A stretch of DNA of 32,000 nt from Nitrosococcus oceani ATCC 19707. GTDB taxonomy: Bacteria > Pseudomonadota > Gammaproteobacteria > Nitrosococcales > Nitrosococcaceae. Both the position numbers and the translations under genes were made by a program. The stretch is from contig NC_007483.1 in assembly GCF_000012805.1 (NCBI RefSeq), positions 1 to 32,000 of the forward strand, in the 5' to 3' direction. Below are positions 11,558 to 32,000 of this stretch, piece by piece (the first letter of the stretch is position 1; each line of letters opens with the position of its first letter). The notes beneath the pieces were generated by a model that was given only the letters and a program-made list of their open reading frames with translations, was not told where the DNA came from and searched no databases.

Positions 11558-11575
11558 GAGTCGGACGTCCGACTC
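11558..11575. promoter_or_regulatory. 18-bp perfect palindrome GAGTCGGACGTCCGACTC, copy 82 nt downstream of parB (candidate parS)
   Basis: Identical to the 11143-11160 copy. A half-site-like GAGTCGGCACTC occurs near 11750. Confidence 0.5.
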
Positions 11576-14969: not shown

Positions 14970-15236
14970 ATGGAACTTAAACAAGACGATACGCCGGAGT
15001 TTTGGGCAGAGGCGATGAAGCGAGTATTAGAGTATTATAAACAAGGGTTATCGTTGGCGGAGGCTGCCGAGCGGTTATCGATTCCGAAAGTGACCTTAAC
15101 GACATGGGGTCAGCAAAGCCAAAGGGGGAAAGCGCCAGCGGCGCCACTCGTGCCTTGGCTACCTGGCCCCGGCTGTGTTTGCTCAAAACTTCCGCAAACC
15201 ACAGGGGGTTACCTGAAACAGGAGCGTCCACGATGA
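14970..15236 (+). CDS. small helix-turn-helix protein, possibly a transposase N-terminal remnant
   Basis: GGAGG RBS then ATG at 14970. 'GLSLAEAAERLSIPKVTLTTW' is HTH-like. It lies 124 nt inside the GGGG-starting repeat, and its C-terminal half is low complexity. Confidence 0.35.
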   Translation: MELKQDDTPEFWAEAMKRVLEYYKQGLSLAEAAERLSIPKVTLTTWGQQSQRGKAPAAPLVPWLPGPGCVCSKLPQTTGGYLKQERPR

Positions 15237-15292
15237 CCAGGACACCTCAGTCACGATTGAAGGTTTGGAGACCCATGCCATCGTCCACAGCC

Positions 15293-16756
15293 ATGAAGCA
15301 TCAGGATATCGGTTGGCATTTTGATAACACCTATGCGCAGCTGCCCGACCACTTTTACACGAAGCTGCATCCGGTTCCGGTGCATGAACCACGCCTTGTC
15401 ATTGTCAATAATGCCCTGGCAGAAGAACTAGGATTAAATCTCAAAGCCTCCTCTGAGGATGAATTAGCGCAGCTTTTTTCAGGCAATCAGCTTCCAGAAG
15501 GTGCAGAGCCTCTGGCGCAGGCCTACGCCGGGCATCAGTTTGGCCATTTTACCTATTTGGGTGATGGGCGGGCCCATTTAATCGGCGAGCATCTCACCCC
15601 AGACGGTAAACGGGTGGATATTCAGTTCAAAGGCTCGGGCCAAACACCCTATGCCCGGCGCGGTGATGGGCGTGCAGCGTTGGGTCCGATGCTGCGAGAG
15701 TATATCATCAGCGAAGCCATGCATGCGCTGGGCATCCCTACCACCCGTAGTCTTGCGATAGCCACCACCGGCGAATCTGTTTACCGGGAAACGGTACTGC
15801 AAGGAGCGATTCTGACCCGCGTCGCATCCAGTCACTTGCGTGTGGGCACATTTGAATATCTGGCCGCACAAGAAGATAAAGCAGGCCTGAAGCAACTTAC
15901 TGATTATGCTATACAGCGCCATTATCCAGAAATAATAGACTCTGATACTCCCTATCTTGAGCTGCTCAAGGCCGTCATGGCTTGCCAGATAAAACTTATC
16001 ACCGAATGGCTGCGAGTAGGGTTTATTCACGGCGTGATGAACACGGACAATATGGCCGTTTCCTGTCAGACCATTGATTATGGCCCCTGTGCATTCATGG
16101 ATAGCTATGATCCCAACACCGTGTTCAGCTCCATCGACCACATGGGGCGTTATGCCTATGCCAATCAGCCCCGTATCGCGCAGTGGAACTTAGCACGGTT
16201 TGCTGAAGCTATCCTTCCGCTACTGCATGAAAATATTGAGAAGGCTGCCGCAATGGCAGAGGAAGTCATCCAGTCATTTAAGGCATTATTTCAGCAGGAA
16301 TGGCTAGCAATGATGCGTCGCAAGCTGGGGCTGTTCGGTGAAGAAAAAGAAGATAGGGAATTCATCACCGGGCTTCTGCAATGGATGCAACGCAGTCATG
16401 CGGATTATACCAATACATTCCGTGATTTGATGGATGAGCATTTTCCCGAAGAGCCACACTATCAGGATCAAGAATTCAAACATTGGTACGATAGATGGCA
16501 ACAGCGGCTGGAACATAACACCAACCCGTTCCCATCCTCCCTGTGCCTCATGGGTGCGACCAACCCGGTGGTCATACCCCGTAATCATCGTGTAGAAGCA
16601 GCGCTTAACGCTGTAGAACAGAACGCTGACTTCTCAAAGCTACATGAATTGCTGGATGTGCTGTCTGAGCCCTATAAAGATAAAGAGAAATACACTGAAT
16701 TCAAAAACCCTCCTGCGCCGAAAGAACGGGTGTACCAAACCTTTTGTGGTACTTGA
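15293..16756 (+). CDS. selO: protein adenylyltransferase SelO (YdiU family)
   Basis: 'YAGHQFGHFTYLGDGRAHLIGE', 'FKGSGQTPYARRGDGRA' and 'GFIHGVMNTDNMAV' are hallmark SelO motifs. The start was moved to the ATG at 15293 (487 aa). The upstream 63 codons of the track ORF are low complexity. Confidence 0.9.
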   Translation: MKHQDIGWHFDNTYAQLPDHFYTKLHPVPVHEPRLVIVNNALAEELGLNLKASSEDELAQLFSGNQLPEGAEPLAQAYAGHQFGHFTYLGDGRAHLIGEHLTPDGKRVDIQFKGSGQTPYARRGDGRAALGPMLREYIISEAMHALGIPTTRSLAIATTGESVYRETVLQGAILTRVASSHLRVGTFEYLAAQEDKAGLKQLTDYAIQRHYPEIIDSDTPYLELLKAVMACQIKLITEWLRVGFIHGVMNTDNMAVSCQTIDYGPCAFMDSYDPNTVFSSIDHMGRYAYANQPRIAQWNLARFAEAILPLLHENIEKAAAMAEEVIQSFKALFQQEWLAMMRRKLGLFGEEKEDREFITGLLQWMQRSHADYTNTFRDLMDEHFPEEPHYQDQEFKHWYDRWQQRLEHNTNPFPSSLCLMGATNPVVIPRNHRVEAALNAVEQNADFSKLHELLDVLSEPYKDKEKYTEFKNPPAPKERVYQTFCGT

Positions 16757-16959: not shown

Positions 16960-18171
16960 TCAGCAACCGGGATTGTCCTGGGCTTCCGCCGGCGCCAGTC
17001 GTGCCAGCAACGCGGTAGCCTGCTTCTGATGCGCGGTGAGTTGACCAGCCAGTTCTGCGGCCCGCTCACGCGCGCTGCCGGCATCCTGCCTGGCCTGGTC
17101 ACGCTCTGCCTGAACGGCGTTCAAGCGCTCGGCCATCTTATGGATCTCGGTCGCAGCCTTCTTGCGCTGCTCCTGGTGCGACTGTTCAGCCGCCTCGGCC
17201 TTGGCTTGTACCTTTGTCAACTCGGCACGCACCCGCTCAAGTTGCATGGTCACTGCCTTGGTAGCCTGCTGTGCCTCGGTCGCGGTATTTCGCGACCTAT
17301 CGGCATCCTGGTGCACCCGATCTAGTTCGGCGCGAAGGTCCGCCGCTCGGTGCTCGATTTCCTCGGCTTTTGCTTCGGCTCGTTCCGCTCTTGTTAGTGC
17401 CTGGGTCAACTCTCCCTGTACGGCGGCCAACTCAGCGGCAGCCTGGGCAGTTTGCTCCTGGTGCGACTGTTCGGCCGCCTCGGCCTTGGCTTGCACCTTT
17501 GCCAACTCGGCACGCACCCGCTCAAGTTGCATGGTCACTGCCTTGGTAGCCTGCTGTGCCTCGGTCGCGGTATTTCGCGACCTATCGGCATCCTGGTGTG
17601 CCCGGTCTAGTTCGACGCGAAGGTCCGCCGCTCGGTGCTCGATTTCCTCGGCTTTTGCTTCGGCTCGTTCCGCTCTTGTTACTGCTTGGGTCAACTCTTC
17701 CTGTACGGCGGCCAACTCAGCGGCAGCCTGGGCAGTTTGCTCCTGGTGTAGCTGGGTCGCGGCGGCCGCCTGCGCCTTAACCTGATCGAGCTCCGTCGCC
17801 TGCGTTTCGTAGGCATCAGCCAGTTCAGCCCGCATAGCATCCAGTTCGGCCTGTTCGGCCTCCCAGCTTGATTGGGCGGCCTGTAGTGATTCGTTCGCCA
17901 GCTTCTGAGCTTCCTGCCACAACGTAGCCAGAGCGGTAGCATTAGCCTGGCTAATTGTCTCCGGCACGGTAACAGCCACGGGTGCGACCTGGACGGTTTG
18001 CTGGCGTCGCCACTCCCGCATCACAGCGCTAGTGGTGTTCATATCGGCTCGCGCTACCCGGCGTACTTGGTCCACTGTGGGGAACGCTTCGCGGTTGGCC
18101 TGCTCGTACAGTTCATCAGCCGTAGAGGTGATGCGTTCGCGTACTTCAGCGGGGATCATGAATTGAGTCAT
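16960..18171 (-). CDS. kfrA: KfrA-like DNA-binding coiled-coil protein
   Basis: N-terminal 'ITSTADELYEQANREAFPTVDQVRRVARADMNTTSAVMREWRRQQ' is KfrA_N-like. The remainder is Ala/Glu/Gln-rich coiled coil with a 95-aa internal duplication. Confidence 0.7.
   Translation of the reverse strand: MTQFMIPAEVRERITSTADELYEQANREAFPTVDQVRRVARADMNTTSAVMREWRRQQTVQVAPVAVTVPETISQANATALATLWQEAQKLANESLQAAQSSWEAEQAELDAMRAELADAYETQATELDQVKAQAAAATQLHQEQTAQAAAELAAVQEELTQAVTRAERAEAKAEEIEHRAADLRVELDRAHQDADRSRNTATEAQQATKAVTMQLERVRAELAKVQAKAEAAEQSHQEQTAQAAAELAAVQGELTQALTRAERAEAKAEEIEHRAADLRAELDRVHQDADRSRNTATEAQQATKAVTMQLERVRAELTKVQAKAEAAEQSHQEQRKKAATEIHKMAERLNAVQAERDQARQDAGSARERAAELAGQLTAHQKQATALLARLAPAEAQDNPGC
17166..17735. 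repeat. 2 x 285-bp in-frame tandem duplication inside the kfrA-like gene
   Basis: Units at about 17166-17450 and 17451-17735 differ by roughly a dozen substitutions by eye. The protein repeat is 'ATKAVTMQLERVRAEL.KVQAKAEAAEQSHQEQTAQAAAELAAVQ.ELTQA.TRAERAEAKAEEIEHRAADLR.ELDR.HQDADRSRNTATEAQQ'. Confidence 0.9.
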
Positions 18172-19583: not shown

Positions 19584-20546
19584 TTATTCCTGAAGAGGAT
19601 GAATGAGTAGATTCCAATAATATTCGGAAGCACCTTCATTGGTGAGCTTTTCCTTAGCAGCAGGTTGATGAAACTGCATGCCGAGCGGCTTCAAATACAT
19701 CATATGGCCATCATCTTCGATTCGAAGTTGCTCATTGAAACTACTGTCACTACCTGTATCACCGTACGCATACACGAGGCCACTGGTGAAAGAATTTTGA
19801 CTGCCTTGCCAGATGCGGCAACTGCTGATGGATTTGCCATTTTCATAAATGGCAGCGGAGAAATGGCGGGCATCAATACGTCGGAATCGAGTTCGAATAC
19901 TAGGATTACGCCGCTCCAGCTCAGCTAGAGAACCCTCGAAGAAATTTGCCATATAATCAAATGCATCATCGAGAAAGGTATCACGGTCATGGTCCGTGAA
20001 ACTCTTCCTGATACGTAAATTGCTGGATCGTAGCGCATGCCGTACAGGAGCAGTCTGCTCGGTAGGTGGGTAAGCAGATAAGCCCGTCTGAGGCTTGATG
20101 GGAGCCGATATCACTTGCTCGGCAGCTCGTTTGATTGCCTTGACGATTTCTAAAAAGGCCTCGTCTTTATCTGGAAACTTCGTCACGGGTTTGCCATCCG
20201 TAGGCGTTGCTAAAAGCTTGCCGAAGCGTGCGCTATGCCAGTCGCAGGGGCGGAGAATTACCGGAATAACTTTGGCATTACCTTCTTCATGCCGCTCCAA
20301 AGCGCGGGTCATCTCGACATCGTAACAATAGTCGGAAGCCAGGAAATCCGGGCTGACTAAGAGAAGAGTGATATCGGCATTCTCAAGATTTTCACTGATA
20401 GTCTGGTCAATGACCTCTCCGGCCCCAATTCTCCGGTCATGCCAGGCATCAATCACACCTTGGCGTTTGAGCATGGCAAGGTGTATCTCCAGCTCGTCAC
20501 GCAAAGGCTCATCCTTATGGGAGTAAGAGAAGAAGACAGAGGCCAT
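19584..20546 (-). CDS. TIR-domain protein with uncharacterised C-terminal domain
   Basis: 'VFFSYSHKDEPLRDELEIHLAMLKRQGVIDAWHDRRIGAGE...ADITLLLVSPDFLASDYCYDVEMTRAL...VIPVILRPCDW' is a canonical bacterial TIR, with the Glu in 'CYDVE' retained. About 180 aa of the C-terminus are unassigned. The ATG at 20546 is preferred; the track start at 20564 is TTG. Confidence 0.85.
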   Translation of the reverse strand: MASVFFSYSHKDEPLRDELEIHLAMLKRQGVIDAWHDRRIGAGEVIDQTISENLENADITLLLVSPDFLASDYCYDVEMTRALERHEEGNAKVIPVILRPCDWHSARFGKLLATPTDGKPVTKFPDKDEAFLEIVKAIKRAAEQVISAPIKPQTGLSAYPPTEQTAPVRHALRSSNLRIRKSFTDHDRDTFLDDAFDYMANFFEGSLAELERRNPSIRTRFRRIDARHFSAAIYENGKSISSCRIWQGSQNSFTSGLVYAYGDTGSDSSFNEQLRIEDDGHMMYLKPLGMQFHQPAAKEKLTNEGASEYYWNLLIHPLQE

Positions 20547-20567
20547 CAGTTTTTTCTCGATCAATGG

Positions 20568-20801
20568 TTAATGCTTCCGATCTTTGGGTGGGTGAGGATT
20601 ATTCTCGTAGCTATGGGAGTCCCGGATTCGGCCATCACAACGATGAATTACCAGCGCCGTCTGGTTTTTTTTCGCCAGTCTCCTGCCTTCGTTACTGGCA
20701 TCTTTCTGGGTACGGTGAAGAGAAGAAGCGCGATCTTTTCCCTCTTTTTGTATAGCCCACTGCTTGTTACGGGGCACCACATGATAATCACGCTTAGGCA
20801 T
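20568..20801 (-). CDS. DUF2188-domain protein
   Basis: 'YHVVPRNKQWAIQKEGKDRASSLHRTQKDASNEGRRLAKKNQTALVIHRCDGRI' matches the DUF2188 pattern. GGAGAGG RBS. Its stop is 3-21 nt from the TIR gene start. Confidence 0.75.
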   Translation of the reverse strand: MPKRDYHVVPRNKQWAIQKEGKDRASSLHRTQKDASNEGRRLAKKNQTALVIHRCDGRIRDSHSYENNPHPPKDRKH

Positions 20802-21000
20802 ACATCCTCTCCAAGTTAGTCAATCATCCAGTCATCACCGGAGACAAAATATTGAGACCTATACAGCCCAAGTATATCCTCCAGCGCCTCCAAAGGTAGC
20901 TCATCTTGAGCAAGTTCAATGGCTTGCCTCGATCTAGCCATCGTGCAGTTGATTCAAAACCTGAGTGGATAATTGCTGTCTTTATTAAATAGAATTAATA

Positions 21001-21041
21001 TCCCAGATAATATGTGTCCTTAGGACACATATTATCTGGGA
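21001..21041. promoter_or_regulatory. 41-bp near-perfect palindrome (20-nt arms, 1-nt centre), core GTCCTTAGGAC
   Basis: TCCCAGATAATATGTGTCCT-T-AGGACACATATTATCTGGGA, in the divergent intergenic region between the DUF2188-TIR operon and abiEi. Confidence 0.6.
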
Positions 21042-21084
21042 ATTGATAAACTGTCAAGAAAATCCTTTTAAGACATTGGAAGTA

Positions 21085-21113
21085 TTGACAATATTTACGA
21101 TACCATATATACG
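21085..21113 (+). promoter_or_regulatory. sigma70-like promoter of abiEi/abiEii
   Basis: TTGACA (21085-21090), 17-nt spacer, TATACG (21108-21113). It overlaps the left arm of the second palindrome. Confidence 0.45.
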
Positions 21114-21139
21114 TCCTAAGGACGTATATATGGTATCGT
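21097..21139. promoter_or_regulatory. 43-bp near-perfect palindrome (21-nt arms, 1-nt centre), core GTCCTAAGGAC; candidate AbiEi operator
   Basis: ACGATACCATATATACGTCCT-A-AGGACGTATATATGGTATCGT. It ends 10 nt before the abiEi ATG. Confidence 0.6.
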
Positions 21140-21148
21140 TTTTACTCT

Positions 21149-22069
21149 ATGGATATTCGCACCGCTCTGACTCTGGAACTGGGTGATCTCCATCAGCCCG
21201 TCGTGACTAGCTACCATCTCGGTCTTCTGGTGTTTCGCCTGTACCAAACTAAAACCTACCGGGGTGAACCCATTGCTCGTTTGAGCAAGTCCTACCCGGA
21301 GCGGAGTGACTATCGCCGGTTTGTTGGCAATTTGGAACGTTTAGGTGTGCTTCGGAACACCACCGCAGTGCCTAATAAAGAGGTTTTCATCCTTCTTGGC
21401 AAAGATATCTCCTCGGCCGAGGAGATTGCCTGTTGCGTCGATCCCTTCACCTATGTTTCGCATCTGAGCGCTATGGAATATCACGGTCTTACCGACCGTT
21501 TTCCCAAAACGCTCTTTATAACCGCCCCCCCACCTGTTCGCTGGTCACAGCTGGCAGGGGAGAAAATGCGAAAGGAGATAGGAGGGGAATTTTACTTGTC
21601 GTACCTTGACACTCATCTTCCTCGGTTGCGGCGTCTGCGTTTGCCAAAAATCAATCGCAAGTCCGTTAGCCTATACACGACCGTTCATTATGATCTCGGC
21701 GCTTATCTATCAATTCAGGATAAGACTTTGCGAGTCTCAACAATCGGGCGCACGTTTCTTGATATGATTCGGGAGCCTGATCTATGCGGTGGCATCTATC
21801 ATGTGCTGGACGTATATGCGGAGCATGCGCTCCGCTATCTGCGTTTGATCGTAGATAAGGTTGACCGCCATGGCAGCCCCATTGATAAGGTGCGCGCAGG
21901 ATATATTCTTGAAGAGCGTCTTAAGCTCGAACATCCTACCATCGCAACATGGCGGGCCTATGCCAAACGAGGCGGTTCACGAAAGCTTTTAGCACAAGCT
22001 GACTACAGCCCGCACTTTTCCGAAACATGGTGCTTATCCATTAACATCGATGAGCCTGGGGAGCCTTGA
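21149..22069 (+). CDS. abiEi: AbiEi-family antitoxin/transcriptional regulator (type IV TA)
   Basis: 306 aa. 'VSHLSAMEYHGLTDRFPKTLFI' is typical of the AbiEi C-terminal domain. It lies immediately upstream of an AbiEii nucleotidyltransferase gene. Confidence 0.75.
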   Translation: MDIRTALTLELGDLHQPVVTSYHLGLLVFRLYQTKTYRGEPIARLSKSYPERSDYRRFVGNLERLGVLRNTTAVPNKEVFILLGKDISSAEEIACCVDPFTYVSHLSAMEYHGLTDRFPKTLFITAPPPVRWSQLAGEKMRKEIGGEFYLSYLDTHLPRLRRLRLPKINRKSVSLYTTVHYDLGAYLSIQDKTLRVSTIGRTFLDMIREPDLCGGIYHVLDVYAEHALRYLRLIVDKVDRHGSPIDKVRAGYILEERLKLEHPTIATWRAYAKRGGSRKLLAQADYSPHFSETWCLSINIDEPGEP

Positions 22070-22927
22070 TTGCAAAAATTCGATATCAAAGAGTGGATCA
22101 ACCAGAATTCAGAACATCGCTCCTTTCGCCAAGCCGTTCATACCATCCTCACCGCGATTGCGGGTACTCCCAGCCTACAAACAGCTATGATTATGAAGGG
22201 CGGCGTGCTGCTTGCTCTCAGCTACAGAAGCCCGCGTTATACCTCGGATATCGACTTTTCGACAGCAACGAAGCGGCCTGATTTTAACCTTGATGATTTC
22301 CGCGGGAAACTTGAAGCGAGTTTGATTGATGCCGTTGAAGATTCGGGATACGGCCTCGATTGCCGCATTCAGCGTTGCAAGATGAGCCCCCCTCACGATG
22401 AGGCTACCATGCCGACACTTCAGATCAACATTGGTTATGCCTATAAAGGCCAACACAACTATAAGCGTCTGTTAGAAGGCCGGGCGACTACGGTCATTAG
22501 CCTCGATTATAGCCTAAATGAGCCCGTGGAAGAAATTGATATCTTCGAGCTGGAAGACGGGAATGTTATTCATACTTATAGCCTGGTGGAGATGGTGGCG
22601 GAGAAGTTCCGCGCGCTCTTGCAGCAGGAAGTCCGCAAGCGGGCACGGCGTCAGGATATTTATGATCTGCACTATGTCCTGAGCGATCATCCCCTGCGCA
22701 ACGACTCGGATACCCAAGCCCGTATTCTTAAAAGGCTGATTGATAAATCACGCATTCGTGATTTATCGGTACATTTAGATTCTATGTCCAACCCTGAGAT
22801 TCGAAATCGCACAGCGCTTGAATACTCCAAGATGGCCCCGGAAATTGAAGGTGATCTTCCACCATTCGATGAGGTTTATGCCATAGTCGAGTCTTTTTAT
22901 CGAGCCCTTCCTTGGGAAAAGGTCTGA
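22070..22927 (+). CDS. abiEii: AbiEii/AbiGii-family nucleotidyltransferase toxin
   Basis: 'MKGGVLLALSYRSPRYTSDIDFS' (NTase G[GS]...DxD motif) and 'VEMVAEKFRALLQQ'. The TTG start directly abuts the abiEi stop. Confidence 0.8.
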   Translation: MQKFDIKEWINQNSEHRSFRQAVHTILTAIAGTPSLQTAMIMKGGVLLALSYRSPRYTSDIDFSTATKRPDFNLDDFRGKLEASLIDAVEDSGYGLDCRIQRCKMSPPHDEATMPTLQINIGYAYKGQHNYKRLLEGRATTVISLDYSLNEPVEEIDIFELEDGNVIHTYSLVEMVAEKFRALLQQEVRKRARRQDIYDLHYVLSDHPLRNDSDTQARILKRLIDKSRIRDLSVHLDSMSNPEIRNRTALEYSKMAPEIEGDLPPFDEVYAIVESFYRALPWEKV

Positions 22928-23031
22928 TTCCCTGTATCACCATTTACTTCATCGTTTCGGCCAAAAATATCTACTTGCGCAGATTCACGTAGGCTTCTGG
23001 TCTGCCCCTGAGGGCATGGTACATTGCTGGC

Positions 23032-23292
23032 ATGAAGCACCCCGGCAAAGCAGACTGGACGAGGGTGGCCTATCTGGAGAAGCGAAACCCAGAGAAGCGC
23101 CAGTTTCGCTTCTACCGCATCATGATTACCCAGACGCTCTTCGGCTCGTGGGCTATGATCCGCGAATGGGGCAGGATCGGCAGCCCCGGTACTGTGCGGG
23201 AAGTCTGGTTCGACAGTGAGCAGGAAGCGTTAGAAGCCGGTGAGAAGCTTATGAATCAGAAAACACGGCGGGGGTATCAAGTCATCACGTGA
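23032..23292 (+). CDS. WGR-domain protein, paralogue 2 (compact, 86 aa)
   Basis: 'YLEKRNPEKRQFRFYRIMITQTLFGSWAMIREWGRIGSPGTVREVWFDSEQEALEAGEKLMNQKTRRGY' is a complete stand-alone WGR domain. Confidence 0.8.
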   Translation: MKHPGKADWTRVAYLEKRNPEKRQFRFYRIMITQTLFGSWAMIREWGRIGSPGTVREVWFDSEQEALEAGEKLMNQKTRRGYQVIT

Positions 23293-24007
23293 AATCTCAA
23301 AGTCTAAACACATAGCTTCCCAAAGGAAACTATGCCACAAGCTGTGGCCCAAAGAGAGTACGGACTAGTTCTTTTCTCCTTACCTGCGACTCCGGTAGTG
23401 GCCTCGAACGTAGGTTTCCTCTCCCGGTAATAGGCGTCATCGTGAGGTTTGTGCGCTGAATTGCAAATACCCTCTACACTTCTATCCGAACAATTCTGTA
23501 AGCAGTTGCCCTTCCTACGCCAAGCTGTCTACGTGAACACGGAAAGCAAATACGGCGTCGTTTAGTCGTAACCCAAGAGGTAACCTCGCCCGATTCGCAC
23601 CATCACAACGGCTGCACCAGACGTGTGCGGCCGTTCTTTTGGACGAAAAGCCAGCCGACGTATCGAGTTGTCGGCTATATTCATTGACTGTCCGCTTGTG
23701 ACCGCCTTCTACGGACGGTGGTTTATGGCCGATAATGCGATTTATAAATTTGAAAGCCTGGCCCCCATCACCACAAGAGAAACTCTCTTATCTCCCGAAT
23801 TAATGCCGTTATAGATGATGTGCAACTGGAAGCCATCACAACTGATATTGTCTGACCGCGTACTGATCTAATTGGCTCATTGTGTCTTGGCACAGTAATT
23901 TTCACTACTCGGTAAAATCTAGTGCGCTGCTGTGTGTGGCTAACTTGCCTTGTCCGCCGATTCCTTTAACCTCAACTCAATAGCAACCTAATCGCCTGGA
24001 GCGCTCA

Positions 24008-26758
24008 ATGGCTTTCGATCAAACCTACTGCATGGATACCCTCATTGCTGCGACCCGGCCTGATGCTGATCTCGGAGAGTTCATTTTTGCCTTTCTCGAC
24101 GCCTATAACTTTCCCAAGGCGACGGTTACGCAGATTCGCAAGGGTGGTCAACGTAACGTCGCCAGCCGTAAAAATGAAGGGCACGTCGCGATGAAGAACT
24201 GGCTGTACTTCATGCCGGTGCGAGCGGGCGAGAGCATTCACGAGGCGCTCCAGGTACTGGCAGATGAAGAAGAGCCGCCGCGCCATAAGTGTCGCTTTCT
24301 GGTGGTGACCGACTATCAAGAACTCACTGCACTGGATACCAGGACGGATGAGCGTTTGGAGGTGATTCTCGGTGAGCTGGCCACCCAATACCTGTTCTTT
24401 GCCCCCATGGCGGGGCTTGAGCGTACCAAGCCATTTAGCGAAGAATCGGCCGACCTCAAGGCCGCCGCCAAGATGGGGCGGCTGTTTGATCGCCTGAAGG
24501 AAATCAACGAGTTTCAGACTCCCGAGCAGCTTCACGCGCTTAACGTGTTTCTGACCCGGTTGCTGTTCTGCTATTTCGCTGAGGATACCGGGATTTTCCC
24601 CAAGAACGCCTTCACCAAAGTGATCACCGAAGCTAGCGGCAAGAACGGCGAGGGGCTATCCGACCTACTAAAGCAGCTGTTCCGAGTGATGGATCAAGCC
24701 GAGGGCGAGCGACCGGCGGACTTGCCAGCTCATATTGCCCAGTTCCCTTATGTCAACGGCGGCCTATTCCGTGACAACATGCCAGCCCCCAAGATGCGCG
24801 GTAAAGCCAGACGGATGATGATCGAGTGCGGCAAACTCCAGTGGAAGGCCGTCAACCCCGATATCTTCGGCTCGATGTTTCAGGCGGTAGTAGACGAAAA
24901 GAGCCGTGACTCGTTGGGCCAGCACTACACCTCTGTACCGAACATCATGAAGGTGATCCGTCCCCTGTTCCTCGACAAGCTGTATGCCGACCTGCACAAG
25001 TCAAAGGGCAAACGCAGGCAACTGGAAGCACTACTGGTACGGCTGGCCCGTATTTGGGTGTTCGATCCGGCGATGGGCTCCGGCAATTTTCTGATCATCG
25101 CCTATAAGGAACTGCGCCGACTGGAGATGGCCACCTTCCGGTCACTTCAAGCTATGAGTGGTAGTGGCCAGCAGGAAATTTTCATGAGTGGCATCCAGCT
25201 CAGCCAGTTCTATGGTATCGAGATCGACGATTTCGCGCACGAAATTGCCCAGCTATCCCTATGGCTGGTTGAGCATCAGATGAACACGCTGTTTGTAAAG
25301 GAGTTTGGTCATGCTGAGCCAGTGCTACCGCTAAAAGATACTGCCAACTTGGTGCAAGGAAATAGCCTTCGGATGGATTGGCAGAAGGTATGTCCCAATG
25401 ATGGCAGCGCTGAAATATATGTATGCGGGAACCCGCCATTTATTGGCCATGGTAGTCGAGAGAATAGCCAGCTCGACGATATGCGATTGGTGTTAGGGCA
25501 GCTGATTCGCACATACAAGTCCCTCGACTATGTGGCCTGCTGGTTCTTTTTGGCTGCGGAATACTGTCGCCACGGGACAGCAAACGCCGCCTTTGTGTCG
25601 ACGAACTCTCTATGCCAAGGCAAACAAGCGGGGCTACTGTGGCCGTTGTTGGTAGATATGGGGATGAAAATCAGCTTTAGCTACCAAACTTTCCCTTGGC
25701 GGAACAGTGCAAAGGGTAACGCAGGTGTGCATGTTGTGGTCATTGGGCTGGCTGCTCATAACGGACCACGGGTACTCTTCAACCGTATTGATGGTGCCTG
25801 GCATCGTAAAGAAGTTACGAACATCAGCCCCTATCTACTAGAAGGAGGCGACACTGTTGTACGGGAGCGACGAGATCCGCTAATTCAGGACGCATTACCA
25901 ATGTACTTTGGCAATATGCCTAACGACGGTGGCCACCTCCTGTTGACCGCAGGGGATAAAGAGAAGTTAATCGCACAAGAGCCCGCGGCAGAGGCTTGGA
26001 TCAAGCGCTTAATGGGGGCTAAAGAGTTCCTGCAAGGCCATGAGCGCTGGTGTCTGTGGTTGGTTAATGCCACGAAAGAAGAAATCGATGCTATGCCTGT
26101 GGTTCGCGAGCGAGTGGAGCGTGTGCGGGAAACACGTCTTGCTAGCAAAGATGCTGGCGCACGAAAGCTCGCCGAACGGCCGCACCAATTCCGAGACCTT
26201 AATAACCCGGAAAGCTTCATTTTAGTCCCAAGCGTTACATCCGAGCGCCGGAAATATGCGCCCGTCGGGATTTTTGAAGAAGACGTAATTGCTACTAACC
26301 TAACATTAATCATTCCAGATGCTGGGTTATACGATTTCGCCATTCTTTCCACGCAAATGCACATGGACTGGCTACGCCTGGTGGGAGGCCGTTTAGAAAG
26401 CCGTTACCGCTATTCTGCAACTATCGTCTACAACACCTTCCCTTGGCCCAATGCTACCGAAGCACAGCGTAACGCTATCGAAAAACTAGGCCGAGCCGTT
26501 ATTCTGGCGCGTGCAGCGCATCCCGATAAAACCATGGCCCAGCTTTATGACCCGGACAAGATGCCGGACAAACTGCTGGAGGCCCACCAAGCACTGGACC
26601 GCGCCGTGGAGCGCCTGTATCGGGAGCGCCCCTTCCGCGATACCGCTGAGCGTCAGGAATATCTGCTGGCCCGCTATGAGTCGCTGATTGAGGCGGAGAA
26701 AACCGCCAAGGCTGGTAGCAGGAAACAGCCTCGAAAAGCCACGAGTATGGAGAGTTAA
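24008..26758 (+). CDS. large MmeI/YeeA-like N6-adenine DNA methyltransferase (916 aa)
   Basis: SAM motif I 'VFDPAMGSGNFLI' and catalytic motif IV 'CGNPPFIGH'. Long N- and C-terminal flanking domains, as in type IIL/IIG-like enzymes. RBS CTGGAG. Confidence 0.85.
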   Translation: MAFDQTYCMDTLIAATRPDADLGEFIFAFLDAYNFPKATVTQIRKGGQRNVASRKNEGHVAMKNWLYFMPVRAGESIHEALQVLADEEEPPRHKCRFLVVTDYQELTALDTRTDERLEVILGELATQYLFFAPMAGLERTKPFSEESADLKAAAKMGRLFDRLKEINEFQTPEQLHALNVFLTRLLFCYFAEDTGIFPKNAFTKVITEASGKNGEGLSDLLKQLFRVMDQAEGERPADLPAHIAQFPYVNGGLFRDNMPAPKMRGKARRMMIECGKLQWKAVNPDIFGSMFQAVVDEKSRDSLGQHYTSVPNIMKVIRPLFLDKLYADLHKSKGKRRQLEALLVRLARIWVFDPAMGSGNFLIIAYKELRRLEMATFRSLQAMSGSGQQEIFMSGIQLSQFYGIEIDDFAHEIAQLSLWLVEHQMNTLFVKEFGHAEPVLPLKDTANLVQGNSLRMDWQKVCPNDGSAEIYVCGNPPFIGHGSRENSQLDDMRLVLGQLIRTYKSLDYVACWFFLAAEYCRHGTANAAFVSTNSLCQGKQAGLLWPLLVDMGMKISFSYQTFPWRNSAKGNAGVHVVVIGLAAHNGPRVLFNRIDGAWHRKEVTNISPYLLEGGDTVVRERRDPLIQDALPMYFGNMPNDGGHLLLTAGDKEKLIAQEPAAEAWIKRLMGAKEFLQGHERWCLWLVNATKEEIDAMPVVRERVERVRETRLASKDAGARKLAERPHQFRDLNNPESFILVPSVTSERRKYAPVGIFEEDVIATNLTLIIPDAGLYDFAILSTQMHMDWLRLVGGRLESRYRYSATIVYNTFPWPNATEAQRNAIEKLGRAVILARAAHPDKTMAQLYDPDKMPDKLLEAHQALDRAVERLYRERPFRDTAERQEYLLARYESLIEAEKTAKAGSRKQPRKATSMES

Positions 26759-26761
26759 GGC

Positions 26762-28843
26762 ATGACGGAACTGATCAAGGTTGAATACGGTCGCACCGGC
26801 AAGAGTACCAATAGCAATACCTTGGGTATGCGGGAGATGCAGGCCCGAGCATACGAAAAACGCGACAGTCAGTACTTGTTGCTCAAGGCACCACCGGCCT
26901 CCGGCAAATCGCGAGCACTGATGTTTCTGGCCCTCCATAAGCTCCATTGCACTGGCCTGCGCAAAGCCATCGTTGCTGTGCCGGAGATATCGATTGGGGC
27001 ATCCTTTAAGAGCACCGACCTTACTACTCACGGCTTCGAGTGGGACTGGCACGTGGAAGACCGCAACGACCTATGCCGCGCCGGCAATGACAGCGGCAAG
27101 GTGGACGCTTTCTGTCGCTTCATGGCGAGCCCGACCGATCGTATCCTGGTCTGCACCCACGCCACGCTGCGATTCGCGTTTGCCAAGCTCGGTCCTAGCG
27201 ACTTTGATGACTGCCTGGTGGCCATCGACGAATTTCACCATGTCTCGGTCGATGAAGGCAACCGTCTGGGTGGATTGATCGACGATCTGATGCTGGGCGC
27301 CACGGCGCATATCGTGGCGATGACCGGCAGTTACTTCCGCGGTGACGCCGCACCGATCCTGCTGCCGGACGACGAAGCCCGTTTCAACAAAGTGACCTAC
27401 ACTTACTACGAACAGCTCAACGGCTACCGCTATCTGAAGTCACTGGGCATTGGCTACCATTTCTACCCAGGGCGCTACCTCGATGCGATTAATGAGGTGC
27501 TTGATCCTGATAAGAAAACCATCGTCCATATTCCCAACGTCAACAGCGGCGAAAGCACCAAAGACAAGTATAGTGAGGTCGATCATATTCTCGATGCGCT
27601 GGGTGAGGTGGAGGCCCAGGACAGCCAGACCGGTATCGTAACAGTGCGCCATCCCTCGGGACGCTTGCTCAAGGTTGCTGACCTGGTAACGGATACGCCT
27701 ATCCGCCGCGATGTGCAGGAGTATCTGCGCGGCGTAGAGCACCCCGAAGACGTGGACGTGATCATTGCCTTGGGTATGGCCAAGGAAGGCTTTGACTGGC
27801 CGTTCTGTGAGCATGTACTGACCATTGGCTATCGCCGATCGATGACCGAGATTGTCCAGATCATCGGGCGTGCCACGCGTGACAGCGAGGGCAAGACTCA
27901 TGCCCAGTTCACTAACTTGATCGCTCAGCCGGACGCAGACGATGAGGACGTGAAGGTCAGCGTCAACAACCTACTCAAGGCGATCACGGTGTCACTGCTG
28001 ATGGAACAAGTGCTGGCACCTAGCGTGTCCTTTAAGCCGCGTTCGCGGATGCAGGCGGGTGAAGAGACGGAGCCAGGCACGATAATCATTGAGGATACTC
28101 AGGCGCCAGTCTCGGACAAGGTGATCAGCATCCTCCAGTCAGGCGGCCAGGAAGACATTATTGCCGCACTCCTGCAAAAGTCGGAAGTGGCTGCTGCGGC
28201 AGTGACGGAGGTTGTCGAGCCTGAGGTAATCAATGAGTTCGAACTACCTAAGGTTATCGAGCGTCTGCACCCTGAGCTGGATGCTAACGAGCGCGAGCTA
28301 CTCCGCGAGACAGTGCTAACCACCATGGGTGCCCGCGCCACAGGCGGGTTGTTTAACGAAGAAGACTTGCCCGAAGGCGCTGAGATACATGAGCCTGGCC
28401 AAATCTATGACACACATGGCGATGGGCAGCCGGCCGAGCTCGGTACTGCGTCCGATGGACGTGACCTCAGTGATGACAGCAGCGAGGGTGGGGCATCGGG
28501 CAGCCGTCAGTTCCTCAAAATTGGCGATAAGTTCGTTAACATCGAACACCTCAATATTGACTTGATCAATCAGATCAACCCTTTCCAAGGGGCCTATGAA
28601 ATTCTCTCCAAGGCGCTGACGGCACCGGTGCTCAAGGCGATTCAGGACACCGTGGTAGGCGACCGGGCGCAGATGACCGAGGAGGAAGCGGTGATATTGT
28701 GGCCCAGAATTGTAGAGTTCAGGAAAGCTAAGGGACGAGCACCGATGGTGCATAGTGATGATCACATGGAGGTCCGCTACGCTCTGGCACTGGCCTATAT
28801 CCAGCATAAAAAGCGTGAGCGTATGCAGGAGGCCACAACATGA
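26762..28843 (+). CDS. SF2 (DEAD/DEAH-like) helicase with acidic C-terminal extension
   Basis: Walker A 'KAPPASGKSRAL', Walker B 'VAIDEFHHV', motif III-like 'MTGS', motif VI 'QIIGRATRD'. The start is 3 nt after the methyltransferase stop. Confidence 0.85.
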   Translation: MTELIKVEYGRTGKSTNSNTLGMREMQARAYEKRDSQYLLLKAPPASGKSRALMFLALHKLHCTGLRKAIVAVPEISIGASFKSTDLTTHGFEWDWHVEDRNDLCRAGNDSGKVDAFCRFMASPTDRILVCTHATLRFAFAKLGPSDFDDCLVAIDEFHHVSVDEGNRLGGLIDDLMLGATAHIVAMTGSYFRGDAAPILLPDDEARFNKVTYTYYEQLNGYRYLKSLGIGYHFYPGRYLDAINEVLDPDKKTIVHIPNVNSGESTKDKYSEVDHILDALGEVEAQDSQTGIVTVRHPSGRLLKVADLVTDTPIRRDVQEYLRGVEHPEDVDVIIALGMAKEGFDWPFCEHVLTIGYRRSMTEIVQIIGRATRDSEGKTHAQFTNLIAQPDADDEDVKVSVNNLLKAITVSLLMEQVLAPSVSFKPRSRMQAGEETEPGTIIIEDTQAPVSDKVISILQSGGQEDIIAALLQKSEVAAAAVTEVVEPEVINEFELPKVIERLHPELDANERELLRETVLTTMGARATGGLFNEEDLPEGAEIHEPGQIYDTHGDGQPAELGTASDGRDLSDDSSEGGASGSRQFLKIGDKFVNIEHLNIDLINQINPFQGAYEILSKALTAPVLKAIQDTVVGDRAQMTEEEAVILWPRIVEFRKAKGRAPMVHSDDHMEVRYALALAYIQHKKRERMQEATT

Positions 28844-30180
28844 TTCGTACCCGCCGCGAGCCCTTCAAGCGCCGAACGCTAGATGACATCTTTGCAGAGC
28901 CTGACAGTCTTGGTCTGCTTGACGTGGGTCCTAAGCGTGCTGCCGCGCCGACCGCTAATCAACGATTAGTAGCCAGGCTTCAGACGATTGCGGCTTTCGT
29001 CAGCGAGCAGGGGCGCGAGCCTACTCAGAACGCTGATGATCTTGGCGAGGCGACCCTGGCCGTGCAGTTGAGCGCCATACGCGCCAACCCTGAGCATGTG
29101 GCCGCCTTGACCGTCTGGGATACTCATGGGTTGCTGGAAGCGTCAGTGGCCCGTGAGCTCCGACCCAGCGCGCTGGCAACGACTGCATCAGCGCCAGCAC
29201 CGCCTGTTGAAGGAGATAGCTCTGCACCTTCAACGATGCCCCCTCAACAGGAGACCACATCTCCCGATGCGGTCACCTCATTGGAGGATATCTGGGCTAG
29301 TGATGTTCTGGGCCTATTGGGCAGCGCTGATGAGAACGTGGACTCGATATTCGACCTGCAACACGTATCCAAGGTTGAATATAAAGACTTGCCGGACGAA
29401 ATCGCGCAGCGCACCCACTGCGATGACTTTTATCGCTTCGAGAGCCTGTTTGATGAAGTGCGCCAGGAGCTCCGCTCCGGTGATGCCGAGGCGGTGCCTT
29501 TCCAGAGGGAGTCCCAGATCGCTGAAGGGGATATGTTTATTCTCAACGGCATGATCTGTATTACGGATCAGGTAGGCAAGGAGAGTATCGGTGCCGGCAC
29601 CAAATTCAATCCTCGTCTGCGCGTCGTCTACGACAACGGTACAGAGTCTAACCTGTTGCTGCGCTCACTGGCCAGGGCGCTCTACAAAGACAAAGTTGGG
29701 CGGCGCATTCTGCGGCCCGATAGCACTTTCGATGCCATGCGCGGTATCACGCATCGTGACAAGCGCACCGGCATGATTTATATCCTACGCTCGCTGAGCC
29801 TGAATCCAGCGCTAAACGGTATACGTAATCTTCATAAGATCGGCTACACTGAGAAAGACTTGGATGCCCGCCTAGCCAGTGCAGAAAAGCAACAAACGTA
29901 CCTCGAAGCACCGGTCAAGGTCGTTGCCTCCTTCGACTGCTACAACCTCGATCCACGTCGTTTCGAACGCCTCGTCCATACCATGCTCCACCATCAGCGC
30001 GTTAACGTCACGCTCCACGACCGCGATGGTAGCACTTACCGCCCTCGCGAATGGTTTGATGTAGAGCTAGAAACCGCCCGTGAAGTGGTCAACCGTATTG
30101 TGGATGGCACCATCGCACAGTACCGGATGGATAACACCACTGGAAGGTTGGTGGCGAAAAGAGAAAAAGACGTTGGCTGA
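28840..30180 (+). CDS. T5orf172 / GIY-YIG-like domain protein
   Basis: C-terminal 'GMIYILRSLSLNPALNGIRNLHKIGYTEKDLDARL...VVASFDCYNLDPRRFERLVHTMLHHQRV...REWFDVELETAREVV' matches my recollection of the T5orf172 (MUG113) pattern. ATGA overlap with the helicase stop, and an AGGAGG RBS. Confidence 0.75.
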   Translation: MIRTRREPFKRRTLDDIFAEPDSLGLLDVGPKRAAAPTANQRLVARLQTIAAFVSEQGREPTQNADDLGEATLAVQLSAIRANPEHVAALTVWDTHGLLEASVARELRPSALATTASAPAPPVEGDSSAPSTMPPQQETTSPDAVTSLEDIWASDVLGLLGSADENVDSIFDLQHVSKVEYKDLPDEIAQRTHCDDFYRFESLFDEVRQELRSGDAEAVPFQRESQIAEGDMFILNGMICITDQVGKESIGAGTKFNPRLRVVYDNGTESNLLLRSLARALYKDKVGRRILRPDSTFDAMRGITHRDKRTGMIYILRSLSLNPALNGIRNLHKIGYTEKDLDARLASAEKQQTYLEAPVKVVASFDCYNLDPRRFERLVHTMLHHQRVNVTLHDRDGSTYRPREWFDVELETAREVVNRIVDGTIAQYRMDNTTGRLVAKREKDVG

Positions 30181-30329
30181 TTCCGACCCAAGGCAGACGC
30201 TTACAAACTAGATATGCTCCCGAGTAGCGAGCCAGCTTCGGAATCAACCGTTTTTTTCACTGCCGCTAATGACTAATGATTTACGCGCTCATTCTTGCGG
30301 TGCTCCGTCCCCGTCGCCATCCAGAGGGG

Positions 30330-30629
30330 TCATCCTACAAGCCAAATACCACCCGCCTCGGCGGCAGAGCTGGTCATCTCCTTGCAGTAGCACTTAGGAC
30401 CATACACACGTAGAGGACGCTTGCTTGCCAAATGCCAAACGCTTTGCCCGGTTGCCGTAGGGCTGATGCTTCTCTGGCCGCCTATTTCAGTCAGGCGCAC
30501 TTTAATTGGTTGGTCACCGGCTGCTAGCAGGGTAAGCGTATCGCCGTCAGTTATTCCCACCACGCGTCCAGTGTGGTCGGCCAAAGCCGCCAGGGAGAAA
30601 AACAGAAACAGGATTATTATTTTTCTCAT
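30330..30629 (-). pseudogene. decayed thermonuclease (SNase-family) gene
   Basis: An intact signal peptide and 'GRVVGITDGDTLTLLAAGDQPIKVRLTEI' resemble the SNase N-terminus. Family similarity is then lost ('GGQRSISPTATGQ' where I recall D-A-P-E), and the ORF stops at 99 aa. Confidence 0.4.
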
Positions 30630-30792
30630 AGCTACCTCGACAAAAGAAAACTCCGTCTGAGGGAAATTTCCTATGAAACCGAATCAGCATAGCTATCCAT
30701 GAGAAACATCTATTCTCTTCAACCAAGGGGATATTGCGTAGCGGAATCGGTCGTGGGCCAACCGCTCAAAGGCGGCCGGGTCCGGGAAGAGT

Positions 30793-31803
30793 TCAATCCT
30801 TGTCTTTATATTGCCAGAAAGCGTCAGTACACCAGTTGTCTGGCAGTCCCATTGCTTGTTTGGATATCTCTGGGAAGTCCTGCAATAGCTCGATTAAATG
30901 CTGGTGCCAGCGGGTATGCGGGCTGACCCGTTGCATCAAATAGTGCAGCACCGCCAGCACCACGGCGACGCGAGTGTGTGGGGTGCTCCGGCGCAGATAG
31001 CTGGGCCAGGGGAAATTCTGCTGCTTGGGCAACTCCGGCTTGATCCCCAGTTCACGATTCCACAGGCGGGCATGGTGGGCACAAATATTGCGCACCATGC
31101 TCAGGGTATGTAGCCAGGAATCCAGCAAAGGCGCCGGGACGGTCAGTCGTTGGCCGATGGACTTGCGGTCATGATCTTTTGCCAATCCCTTGAACAGGTG
31201 CGATAGATCACCCAGCGTCAACTCTTCAAGCATCGCCCAACCTGGCATCAAGGCAGGATCATCGTAGCTGAGCGCATAGTGGCGGGCGTAGCTTTCCTGA
31301 GCCCGGCGCTGTCGAAGCTGTTCCTTGTGTGCCTCATCGGCACGGGTCAAGCGGCGGTTGATGCGGTCCACCTCGCGCTTGTAGTCCCGCAGCGCTTTTT
31401 GCTGCGTGCCTTCGATGCTATCCAGCAAGCGTTTATGTTTATAGCGATCCTTGAACAGCCTACGGTGCAGATACCAATGCGCGCCATGGATAGGCCCCAT
31501 GTGGTTGGAAATAGCCGCTCTGGTGGCTACCTCCACACGCTTGATGGCATCTATAACGAGCAGCCGCAAGCGATGGTCGAAGTCATACAGACGGCTGATC
31601 TGGCCAAAGCCGGTGCCAGGTTGAAAAGCATGATCGGGGTCCTCATGGACTTGAAATGGCCTCATGTAGGGCGTCAGACGGAAGAAGCTCACCGCTTCCA
31701 GAAAGAGCGCCGCACGGGCCTCATCCTGTATCTGAATGCCTCGTCTCTTAAGTAGAGCCAGTTGCTCAGCGACGGTAATTGCAGGCTTAACGAACTGCCT
31801 CAT
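30793..31803 (-). CDS. Abi_2-family (AbiD/AbiF-like) abortive-infection protein
   Basis: 'KPAITVAEQLALLKRRGIQIQDEARAALFLEAVSFFRLTPYMRPF' and 'WLHTLSMVRNICAHHARLWNR' are typical of the Abi-like family. GGAGGTGGG RBS before the ATG at 31803. Confidence 0.8.
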   Translation of the reverse strand: MRQFVKPAITVAEQLALLKRRGIQIQDEARAALFLEAVSFFRLTPYMRPFQVHEDPDHAFQPGTGFGQISRLYDFDHRLRLLVIDAIKRVEVATRAAISNHMGPIHGAHWYLHRRLFKDRYKHKRLLDSIEGTQQKALRDYKREVDRINRRLTRADEAHKEQLRQRRAQESYARHYALSYDDPALMPGWAMLEELTLGDLSHLFKGLAKDHDRKSIGQRLTVPAPLLDSWLHTLSMVRNICAHHARLWNRELGIKPELPKQQNFPWPSYLRRSTPHTRVAVVLAVLHYLMQRVSPHTRWHQHLIELLQDFPEISKQAMGLPDNWCTDAFWQYKDKD

Positions 31804-31860
31804 CCCACCTCCCGCTGAGCGCAGGCAATAAAAAACCCGCACGATTTGAGCATGACTGCC

Positions 31861-31890
31861 GAGGCAAACATAGGCGAGGCAAACATAGGC
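31861..31890. repeat. 2 x 15-bp tandem repeat GAGGCAAACATAGGC upstream of the Abi_2 gene
   Basis: Exact tandem copies at 31861-31875 and 31876-31890, about 60 nt upstream of the Abi_2 start on the minus strand. Confidence 0.7.
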
Positions 31891-32000
31891 TTGGCGGGTA
31901 TATTAAAGGCAAGTATAGACCATTCGCGTCTATAGGGCTAGCTTCTGTCCAAAGACCGCTGCCGGACGGAGCTGTTTTTACTAGGTCCGAGTCCGGCTAA

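Follow-up and report, generated by a model that had tools for sequence, protein, structure and literature searches.

Does an operon in which a gene for an MmeI-like DNA methyltransferase is followed by genes for a helicase and a GIY-YIG protein encode a working restriction-modification (R-M) system, or an orphan methylase accompanied by two relic passengers? We addressed this question for three consecutive genes (genes 1, 2 and 3) of Nitrosococcus oceani ATCC 19707, which lie in a 32,000-nucleotide stretch of its DNA (NC_007483.1, positions 1 to 32,000, forward strand; hereafter the window). The operon is carried by plasmid A of this species and is an intact, plasmid-borne further member of the YeeA(DnmA)-YeeB-YeeC family, named after Bacillus subtilis yeeA-yeeB-yeeC. 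We lean, with some reserve, towards its being a working three-component R-M system with a logic like that of Type I and Type ISP enzymes.

Neither the trio nor the idea of its mechanism is new, both having been described in 2009. Morgan et al. (2009) divided the homologues of MmeI into two groups, the second of which lacks the PD-ExK motif, diverges over the first ~100 residues and is 'invariably' flanked by genes for a YeeB-like helicase and a YeeC-like GIY-YIG protein, whereas active MmeI-type genes have no obligatory linkage to helicase or nuclease genes (PMC2731913). These authors proposed that the MmeI-like subunit provides specificity and modification and that the helicase and endonuclease subunits cut; expressed alone, YeeA and MslORFHP had no endonuclease activity (PMC2731913). 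YeeA (DnmA) was later found to make N6-methyladenine (m6A) at GACGAG (Nye et al., 2020; PMC7261158) and to influence how some B. subtilis genes are expressed (PMC7261158, PMC9973331), and the synteny of yeeABC was confirmed across species (Fernandez et al., 2023; PMC9973331). A prior interpretation of the N. oceani locus from its letters (the sequence-only reading) had pointed to the same three-gene order in B. subtilis, which domain content and synteny bear out, and had called yeeABC functionally uncharacterised, which is out of date: DnmA is a characterised m6A methylase, and deletion and phage tests have been published. Literature searches found no biochemical characterisation of the trio. 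What is new here is the covariation of the recognition code together with the fast diversification of the target recognition domain (TRD), a partial motif, a module shared by genes 2 and 3, and a variant with an Mrr domain.

The three open reading frames (ORFs) are co-directional and tightly joined, gene 1 to gene 2 by TAA-ggc-ATG, with a gap of 3 nt, and gene 2 to gene 3 by an ATGA overlap; the ORF list and the junction sequences agree exactly with the coordinates and junctions first read for them (Table 1). Shine-Dalgarno-like GGAG/AGGAGG sequences, read directly from the letters, lie 8-13 nt 5' of the start of each of the three genes. A terminator scan gave no convincing terminator 3' of gene 3, and Rfam and tRNA scans were empty.

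The methyltransferase and its MmeI-like N-terminal domain

All five Pfam MmeI domains match gene 1 (MmeI_N 7e-20, MmeI_hel 3e-24, MmeI_Mtase 2e-99, MmeI_TRD 1e-75 and MmeI_C 1.5e-23). These hidden Markov model (HMM) matches agree with the MmeI-like architecture proposed from sequence, and the motifs DPAMGSGNFL and NPPF, on which the methyltransferase assignment had been based, are both present in the translation. Residues 92-900 were aligned by phmmer with MmeI (PDB 5HR4, E 8e-193), and residues 1-91 were left unaligned in phmmer searches of the PDB with either the full-length protein or its N-terminal 169 amino acids as query. Gene 1 and MmeI have in common the five-domain architecture, the methyltransferase motifs, and the recognition residues and code of the TRD; they differ in the divergent first ~90 residues, in the catalytic triad, replaced by A/M/V in gene 1, and in the obligatory linkage of gene 1 to helicase and nuclease genes.

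The catalytic residues of MmeI are D70, E80 and K82 (PMC2731913), within the motif GFVD70LFWPGILLIE80MK82SRG. MmeI residues 1-153, matched exactly to PDB 5HR4, were aligned by MAFFT L-INS-i together with the N-terminal regions of 115 full-length gene 1 relatives. In this alignment the D-ExK motif corresponds to gene 1 residues ~61-73, a region where N-terminal similarity is weak. The D70 column is occupied by A (78 relatives), G (36) or T (1); the E80 column by M (45), R (43), H (9), Q (9), L (4) or K (3); and the K82 column by V (84), L (8), I (8), T (6), A (4) or M (2), the residues of gene 1 itself being A, M and V. A check independent of the placement of MmeI gave the same picture: across gene 1 residues 25-101, no column reaches 80% D/E in the 115 relatives, and a two-acid metal site is therefore impossible in this region. 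F25, I26, F29, T39, T41, R49, N50, L66 and Y67 of the domain are invariant. On these alignments and the Pfam MmeI_N match, the N-terminal domain is retained and catalytically dead, under continued constraint and not decaying.

The sequence-only reading had seen no ExK in gene 1. The absence stands, as the A/M/V columns indicate, and the position does not: the segment that it quoted, 'FLVVTDYQELTALD', is not the motif site and pairs in the phmmer alignment with MmeI residues 110-123, 'YVLVCDFQRFRLTD', a segment common to active and inactive enzymes. An intact D-ExK motif, named there as the observation that would make gene 1 an ordinary type IIL enzyme, was seen neither in gene 1 nor in any of the 115 relatives. 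Over its entire length, gene 1 matches PDLC03598, the PADLOC model named 'REase_MTase_IIG', at 3e-297, and NCBIfam gave no family above cut-off for any of the three proteins. Since the PDLC03598 match is obtained without the nuclease residues, a miscall is likely, and automated annotation would probably present such loci as complete single-protein type IIG R-M systems, ignoring genes 2 and 3.

The specificity of gene 1 can be predicted from the experimentally validated recognition code of the MmeI family. In this code, position 6 depends on residue 808 (R for C, D for G), paired with E806 or K806, position 4 on R810 with A774 or L774, and position 3 on E751/S or K/R, paired with N773 or D (PMC2731914). 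Transferred to gene 1 through the phmmer alignment with MmeI, the code predicts C-G-A-C at positions 3-6 of the site, and hence the partial motif 5'-NNCG(m6A)C-3'; compared with GACGAG of DnmA, the predicted core CGAC differs in the last base. The position-6 pair is E/R in 45/115 relatives and K/D in 68/115, and is never mixed. Because the specificity pairs covary as the code predicts, we conclude that the MmeI recognition code holds in the nuclease-dead subgroup. The six specificity residues occur in 34 combinations among the 115 relatives, and differ even between proteins that are at least 70% identical. Specificity turns over quickly while the helicase is nearly unchanged; an arms-race R-M system therefore fits, and a regulator of fixed promoters does not.

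The helicase, the GIY-YIG protein and their shared module

The motifs GKS, DEFH and QIIGRATR by which gene 2 had been recognised as a superfamily 2 (SF2) helicase are present in its translation. Walker A GKS with K49, DEFHH (156-160), TGS (188-190) and QIIGRxTRD (366-374), that is, motifs I, II, III and VI, are invariant in 54 relatives. Pfam Helicase_C matched just at threshold and DEAD below it, and the protein matched PHROG 16, 'DNA helicase', at 1e-14. As the motor motifs begin at residue ~24, gene 2 has no N-terminal nuclease domain. Foldseek returned generic SF2 motors only (RadD, ISWI, DbpA, UvsW, EcoR124I HsdR and XPB, 3e-6 to 1e-4), and a profile search of the PDB gave matches confined to the Helicase_C motif region. 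The '~250-aa acidic tail' first ascribed to gene 2 resolves instead, by conservation and charge, into three regions: a helical, moderately conserved one (residues 426-529), the poorly conserved acidic linker of Table 1, and a conserved C-terminal domain of balanced charge (residues 583-693, conservation 0.76). Pfam searches at E<=10 gave no family for region 426-563 or for the C-terminal domain. The PADLOC models PbeA and PDC-S57, considered for genes 2 and 3, were rejected, their matches being weak and limited to generic motifs.

That gene 3 ends in a T5orf172/GIY-YIG-like domain, as read from the sequence, is borne out by Pfam (T5orf172 1.7e-15 and MUG113 1.2e-18, residues 311-420), by conserved residues and by a fold match. 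G311 and Y314 (GIY), K333-I-G335 and T337 (YIG), R344 and E404-W-F406 are invariant in 54 relatives, of which 90% or more also have Y336; the Tyr, Arg and Glu residues we take, as established for I-TevI and UvrC, to be the GIY-YIG catalytic set. With their signature residues invariant or nearly so, genes 2 and 3 would appear to be partners CATALYTICALLY intact. The AlphaFold model of gene 3 (predicted local distance difference test, pLDDT, 74.7) comprises a confident helical module (residues 39-93), a disordered linker (103-141), a beta-rich middle part (~190-300) and the C-terminal domain, whose fold is that of phage GIY-YIG/T5orf172 proteins (Foldseek against BFVD, template-modelling score 0.78 over 113 columns). 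An eIF5A/EF-P-like fold was considered for the middle domain and rejected, the Foldseek matches in the PDB being non-significant; a profile search of the PDB with gene 3 gave nothing, and Pfam at E<=10 gave no family for the N-terminal module or the middle domain. The non-catalytic part of gene 3 (residues 1-305), searched exhaustively, has relatives in ~938 representative clusters. A helicase-nuclease fusion was considered for some long relatives (P0397 and others) and rejected, as BLASTP against gene 2 matched the small module only, next to an expanded linker.

This small module is common to the two proteins. A stretch of ~40 residues, helix-GRxP-helix, occurs at the C-terminus of gene 2 and at the N-terminus of gene 3 (Table 1), and hhalign aligned the two with a probability of 93% (E 2.8e-7). 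Searched against all ORFs of the window and of seven loci, the gene 3 module profile found helicase C-termini only (E 5e-5 to 7e-3), and the reverse search with the gene 2 module profile over the same ORFs gave the reciprocal matches. The module is also found in the Moraxella and Lactobacillus trios, and no Pfam family covers it at E<=10. A likeness to the 'helicase-associated (HA)' domain was an impression that was not confirmed. The module may be a docking element through which the gene 2 and gene 3 proteins bind a common partner or one another.

Table 1. Features of the three-gene operon, in window coordinates
Feature	Residues	Position	Strand	Description
Leader of gene 1		23293..24007	+	715 bp; no + strand sigma-70 consensus match, no Rfam family
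Gene 1	916 aa	24008..26758	+	YeeA/DnmA-like MmeI-family N6-adenine DNA methyltransferase with fused TRD; 100% identical to N. oceani ATCC 19707 plasmid protein (P0001)
Gene 1 N-terminal domain	1-165	24008..24502	+	MmeI_N fold kept; D70/E80/K82 equivalents are A/M/V
Gene 1 methyltransferase domain	330-591	24995..25780	+	Motif I DPAMGSGNFL, motif IV NPPF
Gene 1 TRD	614-815	25847..26452	+	Specificity residues S742, N764, L765, E797, R799, R801
Gene 2	693 aa	26762..28843	+	YeeB-like SF2 helicase/translocase, no nuclease domain
Gene 2 acidic linker	530-582	28349..28507	+	26% D/E, conservation 0.43 (poor)
Gene 2 C-terminal module	~643-683	28688..28810	+	Helix-GRxP-helix, paralogous to gene 3 N-terminal module
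Gene 3	446 aa	28840..30180	+	YeeC-like: N-terminal helical module, disordered linker, beta-rich middle domain, C-terminal T5orf172/GIY-YIG domain
Gene 3 N-terminal module	~43-83	28966..29088	+	Helix-GRxP-helix, pLDDT ~92
Gene 3 middle domain	187-305	29398..29754	+	Beta-rich, conserved, no known family; invariant R259, R261, N266, E269, S270, N271
Gene 3 T5orf172/GIY-YIG domain	306-446	29755..30177	+	Pfam, conserved residues, Foldseek

Distribution of the trio and competing explanations of its function

A scan with gene 3, taking one genome per species, gave 15 loci, which were searched by tblastn with all three proteins. The order gene 1-gene 2-gene 3 on one strand was kept at 12/12 loci with enough contig, and in the truncated contigs (3/3) the C-terminus of gene 2 adjoins gene 3. 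The co-occurrence of the triad across genomes, which the sequence-only reading had proposed to check, is therefore seen in every related locus where it could be tested. These syntenic loci belong to Halomonas and relatives, Marinobacterium, Kushneria and the Rhodobacteraceae (Leisingera and another, at 30-45% identity). The same trio is present in Escherichia coli, in Vibrio cholerae and on a plasmid of Ligilactobacillus salivarius. Gene 2 is the most conserved partner, with ~85% identity in Halomonas vs ~70% for genes 1 and 3; the V. cholerae helicase is 66% identical to gene 2 and that of a Firmicute plasmid 46.5%, and a relative of gene 1 named 'YeeA' in its source (P0068) shows 54% identity. 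For gene 1 as for gene 2, database searches returned at least 8000 candidates. In PLSDB, the helicase family was found on 231 plasmids (118 conjugative), among which are plasmids from clinical Enterobacteriaceae, Acinetobacter and Vibrio; it is practically absent from phage genomes, with 4 weak or partial records.

Several of these copies have features of their own. In the E. coli and V. cholerae copies (L019-L023) a gene for a transposase of the ISL3 family lies 3 nt beyond the trio, and in one of them (L023) the block at 4263-11718 lies between two AzlC fragments, which suggests that the enterobacterial and Vibrio trio is the cargo of an ISL3-type transposon. On the Moraxella osloensis plasmid AP031476.1 (2886-8552 of locus L024), the helicase and GIY-YIG genes are intact and the MmeI-like gene is reduced to its first ~320 residues and followed by a RelB/YafQ toxin-antitoxin pair; M. 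osloensis is the species in which Morgan et al. tested MslORFHP (PMC2731913). On the L. salivarius plasmid NZ_CP114522.1 (2319-4994 of locus L025), the MmeI-like gene is in three pieces, labelled 'type IIL restriction-modification enzyme MmeI' by PGAP. Its helical-spacer segment (residues 176-256) is encoded on the other strand, with the arms of an 18-nt inverted repeat (2789-2806/3055-3072, 83% complementary) exactly at its two ends; this rearrangement could be an inversion switch or decay. On Acinetobacter baumannii plasmids, the helicase appears as two separate partial matches. Two relatives (P0371 and P0502) carry an additional ASCH domain at the C-terminus. Lastly, a variant trio on a metagenome contig (ERZ25068966, 2148-9665 of locus L026) includes a YeeC-like protein from the ~938 clusters (P0479) in which everything up to the middle of the GIY-YIG domain is kept and an Mrr_cat domain (residues 407-525) comes next.

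Among named systems, the closest are YeeABC of B. subtilis, the second group of Morgan et al. and yeeAB of Vibrio crassostreae, which share with the N. oceani operon the order and orientation of genes for an MmeI-like methyltransferase-TRD protein without PD-ExK, an SF2 helicase and a T5orf172/GIY-YIG protein, as well as a setting in mobile DNA or defence islands. The N. oceani copy differs in being borne by a plasmid of a marine ammonia oxidiser. It agrees with the second group in three respects: gene 1 resembles MmeI outside the first ~100 residues, D70/E80/K82 are absent, and helicase and GIY-YIG genes follow. Type IIL enzymes, in contrast, carry an N-terminal PD-ExK in the same polypeptide, which gene 1 lacks. 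With Type I (EcoKI, EcoR124I) and Type ISP (LlaGI/LlaBIII) systems the operon shares the combination of methylase and specificity functions, an SF2 ATPase motor and a nuclease. It departs from both in that motor and nuclease are separate polypeptides, the nuclease being GIY-YIG and not PD-(D/E)xK, and in that its site, by analogy with MmeI and DnmA, is probably a short asymmetric sequence with methylation on a single strand; it departs from Type I also in having the TRD fused to the methyltransferase, no HsdS and no HsdR with a nuclease. One of the folds matched by gene 2 is that of the EcoR124I HsdR motor, and sequence similarity between gene 2 and HsdR is negligible, confined to the helicase motif regions. 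PglX of BREX and DrmMI of DISARM are, like gene 1, large N6-adenine methylases of helicase-containing defence systems, and match gene 1 weakly by HMM (DrmMI 7e-34, PglX 1e-5). These matches are far below the family cut-offs and cover the methyltransferase core only, and no other BREX or DISARM component is present at the locus.

The mechanism that we favour, for this operon as for the family, follows from these parts. In the host, the fused TRD of gene 1 would recognise a short asymmetric site, at which gene 1 would methylate one adenine and so mark self DNA. Its N-terminal domain, with the PD-ExK residues lost, cannot cut and probably serves for docking or communication. Where a site is unmethylated, gene 1 would engage the SF2 ATPase of gene 2, acting as a dsDNA translocase or helicase, and the GIY-YIG (T5orf172) nuclease of gene 3 would make the cut; the paralogous helix-GRxP-helix modules may hold the last two proteins on a common partner or on each other, and the assembly would serve in defence. 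A methylation-marked self/non-self system with the helicase and the T5orf172 protein as effector arm had been proposed from the sequence, and we infer the same. Published tests of it are split: they are negative in B. subtilis and positive in V. crassostreae, where inactivation of yeeAB restores sensitivity to one phage subclade (bioRxiv 10.1101/2021.05.05.442762). The harmlessness of methylase deletion would be expected of such a system, since restriction would itself probably need the methylase, through a Type I-like dependence on the methyltransferase-TRD protein.

A number of observations weigh against this interpretation. In B. subtilis, deletion of dnmA alters neither growth nor plasmid transformation (PMC7261158), deletion of yeeB or yeeC is without effect on three Bacillus phages (PMC9973331), and, over both studies, plasmid transformation and infection by the three phages are unchanged by deletion of dnmA, yeeB or yeeC (PMC7261158, PMC9973331). 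Bacillus phage genomes show no avoidance of the DnmA motif (PMC9973331). The authors conclude that yeeABC is a relic system with an orphan methyltransferase (PMC7261158, PMC9973331), reviews of 2025-2026 still list DnmA as an orphan methylase, and neither DNA cleavage nor a complex has been demonstrated for any member of the family. Decayed copies exist, with a truncated methyltransferase gene in M. osloensis, a broken one in L. salivarius and a split helicase in A. baumannii. At the N. oceani locus itself, a sigma-70 scan of the + strand found no promoter upstream of gene 1. The AlphaFold model of gene 2 is poor (pLDDT 61), and because its fold matches are generic SF2, the translocase subfamily cannot be assigned. 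T5orf172 is often annotated as DNA-binding rather than catalytic, and the Mrr_cat variant, which weakly supports a nuclease role for the effector, is a single contig whose helicase gene is interrupted by an insertion sequence.

Much of this would be expected if gene 1 were an orphan epigenetic methyltransferase that modulates promoters, as proposed for DnmA, accompanied by two relic passenger genes: the missing restriction and defence phenotype in B. subtilis, the altered expression of some genes, the usage of the reviews and the decayed triads all speak for it. We nevertheless hold it to be unlikely. The catalytic signatures of gene 2 and of gene 3 are each invariant in 54 relatives, and conservation is highest in gene 2; the tight translational coupling is kept, synteny spans Gammaproteobacteria, Alphaproteobacteria and Firmicutes, and the operon lies on a plasmid within a defence island. 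The fast change of specificity residues between close relatives is the opposite of what a regulator of fixed promoters would show, and V. crassostreae yeeAB has a phage phenotype. A little less probable still is a methylation-guided defence that does not cut, in which T5orf172 would be a DNA-binding domain or sensor and the helicase would block or remodel phage DNA, in the manner of BREX and DISARM, or trigger abortive infection. The first definition of T5orf172 was that of a DNA-binding domain in viral regulators, and its Pfam and source annotations read 'Bacteriophage T5 Orf172 DNA-binding'; the undepleted DnmA motif in Bacillus phages and the weak similarity of gene 1 to PglX and DrmMI are in keeping with such a defence, and the ASCH domain added in some relatives is a nucleic-acid reader. 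However, the GIY-YIG Tyr, Arg and Glu are invariant, with the second Tyr at 90% or more, the fold match is to phage GIY-YIG nucleases, one variant has an Mrr_cat endonuclease domain at the same end, and the PglX/DrmMI similarity is confined to the methyltransferase core.

That gene 1 is an ordinary single-polypeptide type IIL (MmeI-type) enzyme with two unrelated neighbours is contradicted by the sequence and very improbable. The full-length match to PDLC03598, the five Pfam domains and the PGAP labels on homologue fragments would suggest it; the D70/E80/K82 equivalents are absent from gene 1 and all 115 relatives, the two neighbours are strictly co-inherited, and YeeA and MslORFHP were inactive as endonucleases (PMC2731913). 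We return, then, to the three-component R-M system, of which a bolder version can be put forward tentatively, although we are inclined to doubt it in full. The trio would form an active R-M class that has no formal type as yet, combining Type I-like logic with MmeI-style single-strand methylation and a GIY-YIG cutter, in which the dead nuclease domain serves as a hub and the modules recruit helicase and nuclease; the negative results in B. subtilis would reflect a defective copy. Compared with their Vibrio counterparts, YeeB and YeeC of B. subtilis are missing stretches in the C-terminal domains (PMC9973331).

Plasmid setting and meaning for the family

Like that of gene 1, the gene 3 protein is 100% identical to a protein annotated on the N. 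oceani ATCC 19707 plasmid, and 40-41 kb contigs from other N. oceani strains have an identical gene order; megablast of window positions 20000-32000 against PLSDB gave no match. Plasmid A of strain C-107 measures 40,420 bp, with one REBASE methyltransferase cluster listed, that of strain C-27 has a 420-nt deletion at plasmid positions 17241-17660, and strain AFC132 is plasmid-free (PMC7285500). In the window, a KfrA-like gene (16960-18171, -) contains a 285-bp tandem repeat in two copies (96% identity) at 17168-17748. As the C-27 deletion interval falls within this repeat, window coordinates appear to equal plasmid coordinates, and the deletion probably represents repeat-mediated length variation of the KfrA coiled coil.

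The locus sits in a plasmid-borne defence island, and the flanking AbiE, TIR and Abi_2 genes from which this context had been read are borne out by PADLOC. The neighbours include a ThsB-like TIR protein, AbiEi and AbiEii (~1e-109 each) and a small WGR protein, with AbiD/Abi_2 (3e-61) downstream. The ThsB-like TIR protein is full-length (19584-20564, -; PDLC00420, 8e-127), and its gene has a small gene for a DUF2188 protein and one for a WGR-domain protein on its flanks, with another small WGR protein encoded at 23032-23292; no ThsA partner was recognised among the neighbouring ORFs scanned. Elsewhere in the window are ParA/ParB, the KfrA gene, a resolvase, an integrase, an EEP-family nuclease fused to a lamin-tail domain (5468-6664, -), an Mrr_cat restriction endonuclease with a Top1-type zinc ribbon (7265-8122, +) and a SelO protein adenylyltransferase (15104-16756, +). 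At ~2860-4300 the + strand has ~1 kb (core 2950-3950) with hardly any T (A288 C373 G302 T38), the letter being missing altogether over runs of 124 and 121 nt; this stretch gave neither a tandem repeat nor an Rfam match. Since this T-poverty precludes stop codons on both strands, the many overlapping ORFs at 2800-4153 are probably artefacts.

The N. oceani locus itself is of modest value, as an intact, plasmid-borne and well-conserved example with a concrete motif prediction. The family to which it belongs is very large and widespread, and its function is disputed between an orphan methylase with relics and a real defence system. As the MmeI recognition code applies to the nuclease-dead subgroup too, programmable enzymes could follow. 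The cooperation of a dead-nuclease MmeI scaffold with an SF2 motor and a GIY-YIG protein, if shown, would be a new R-M architecture.

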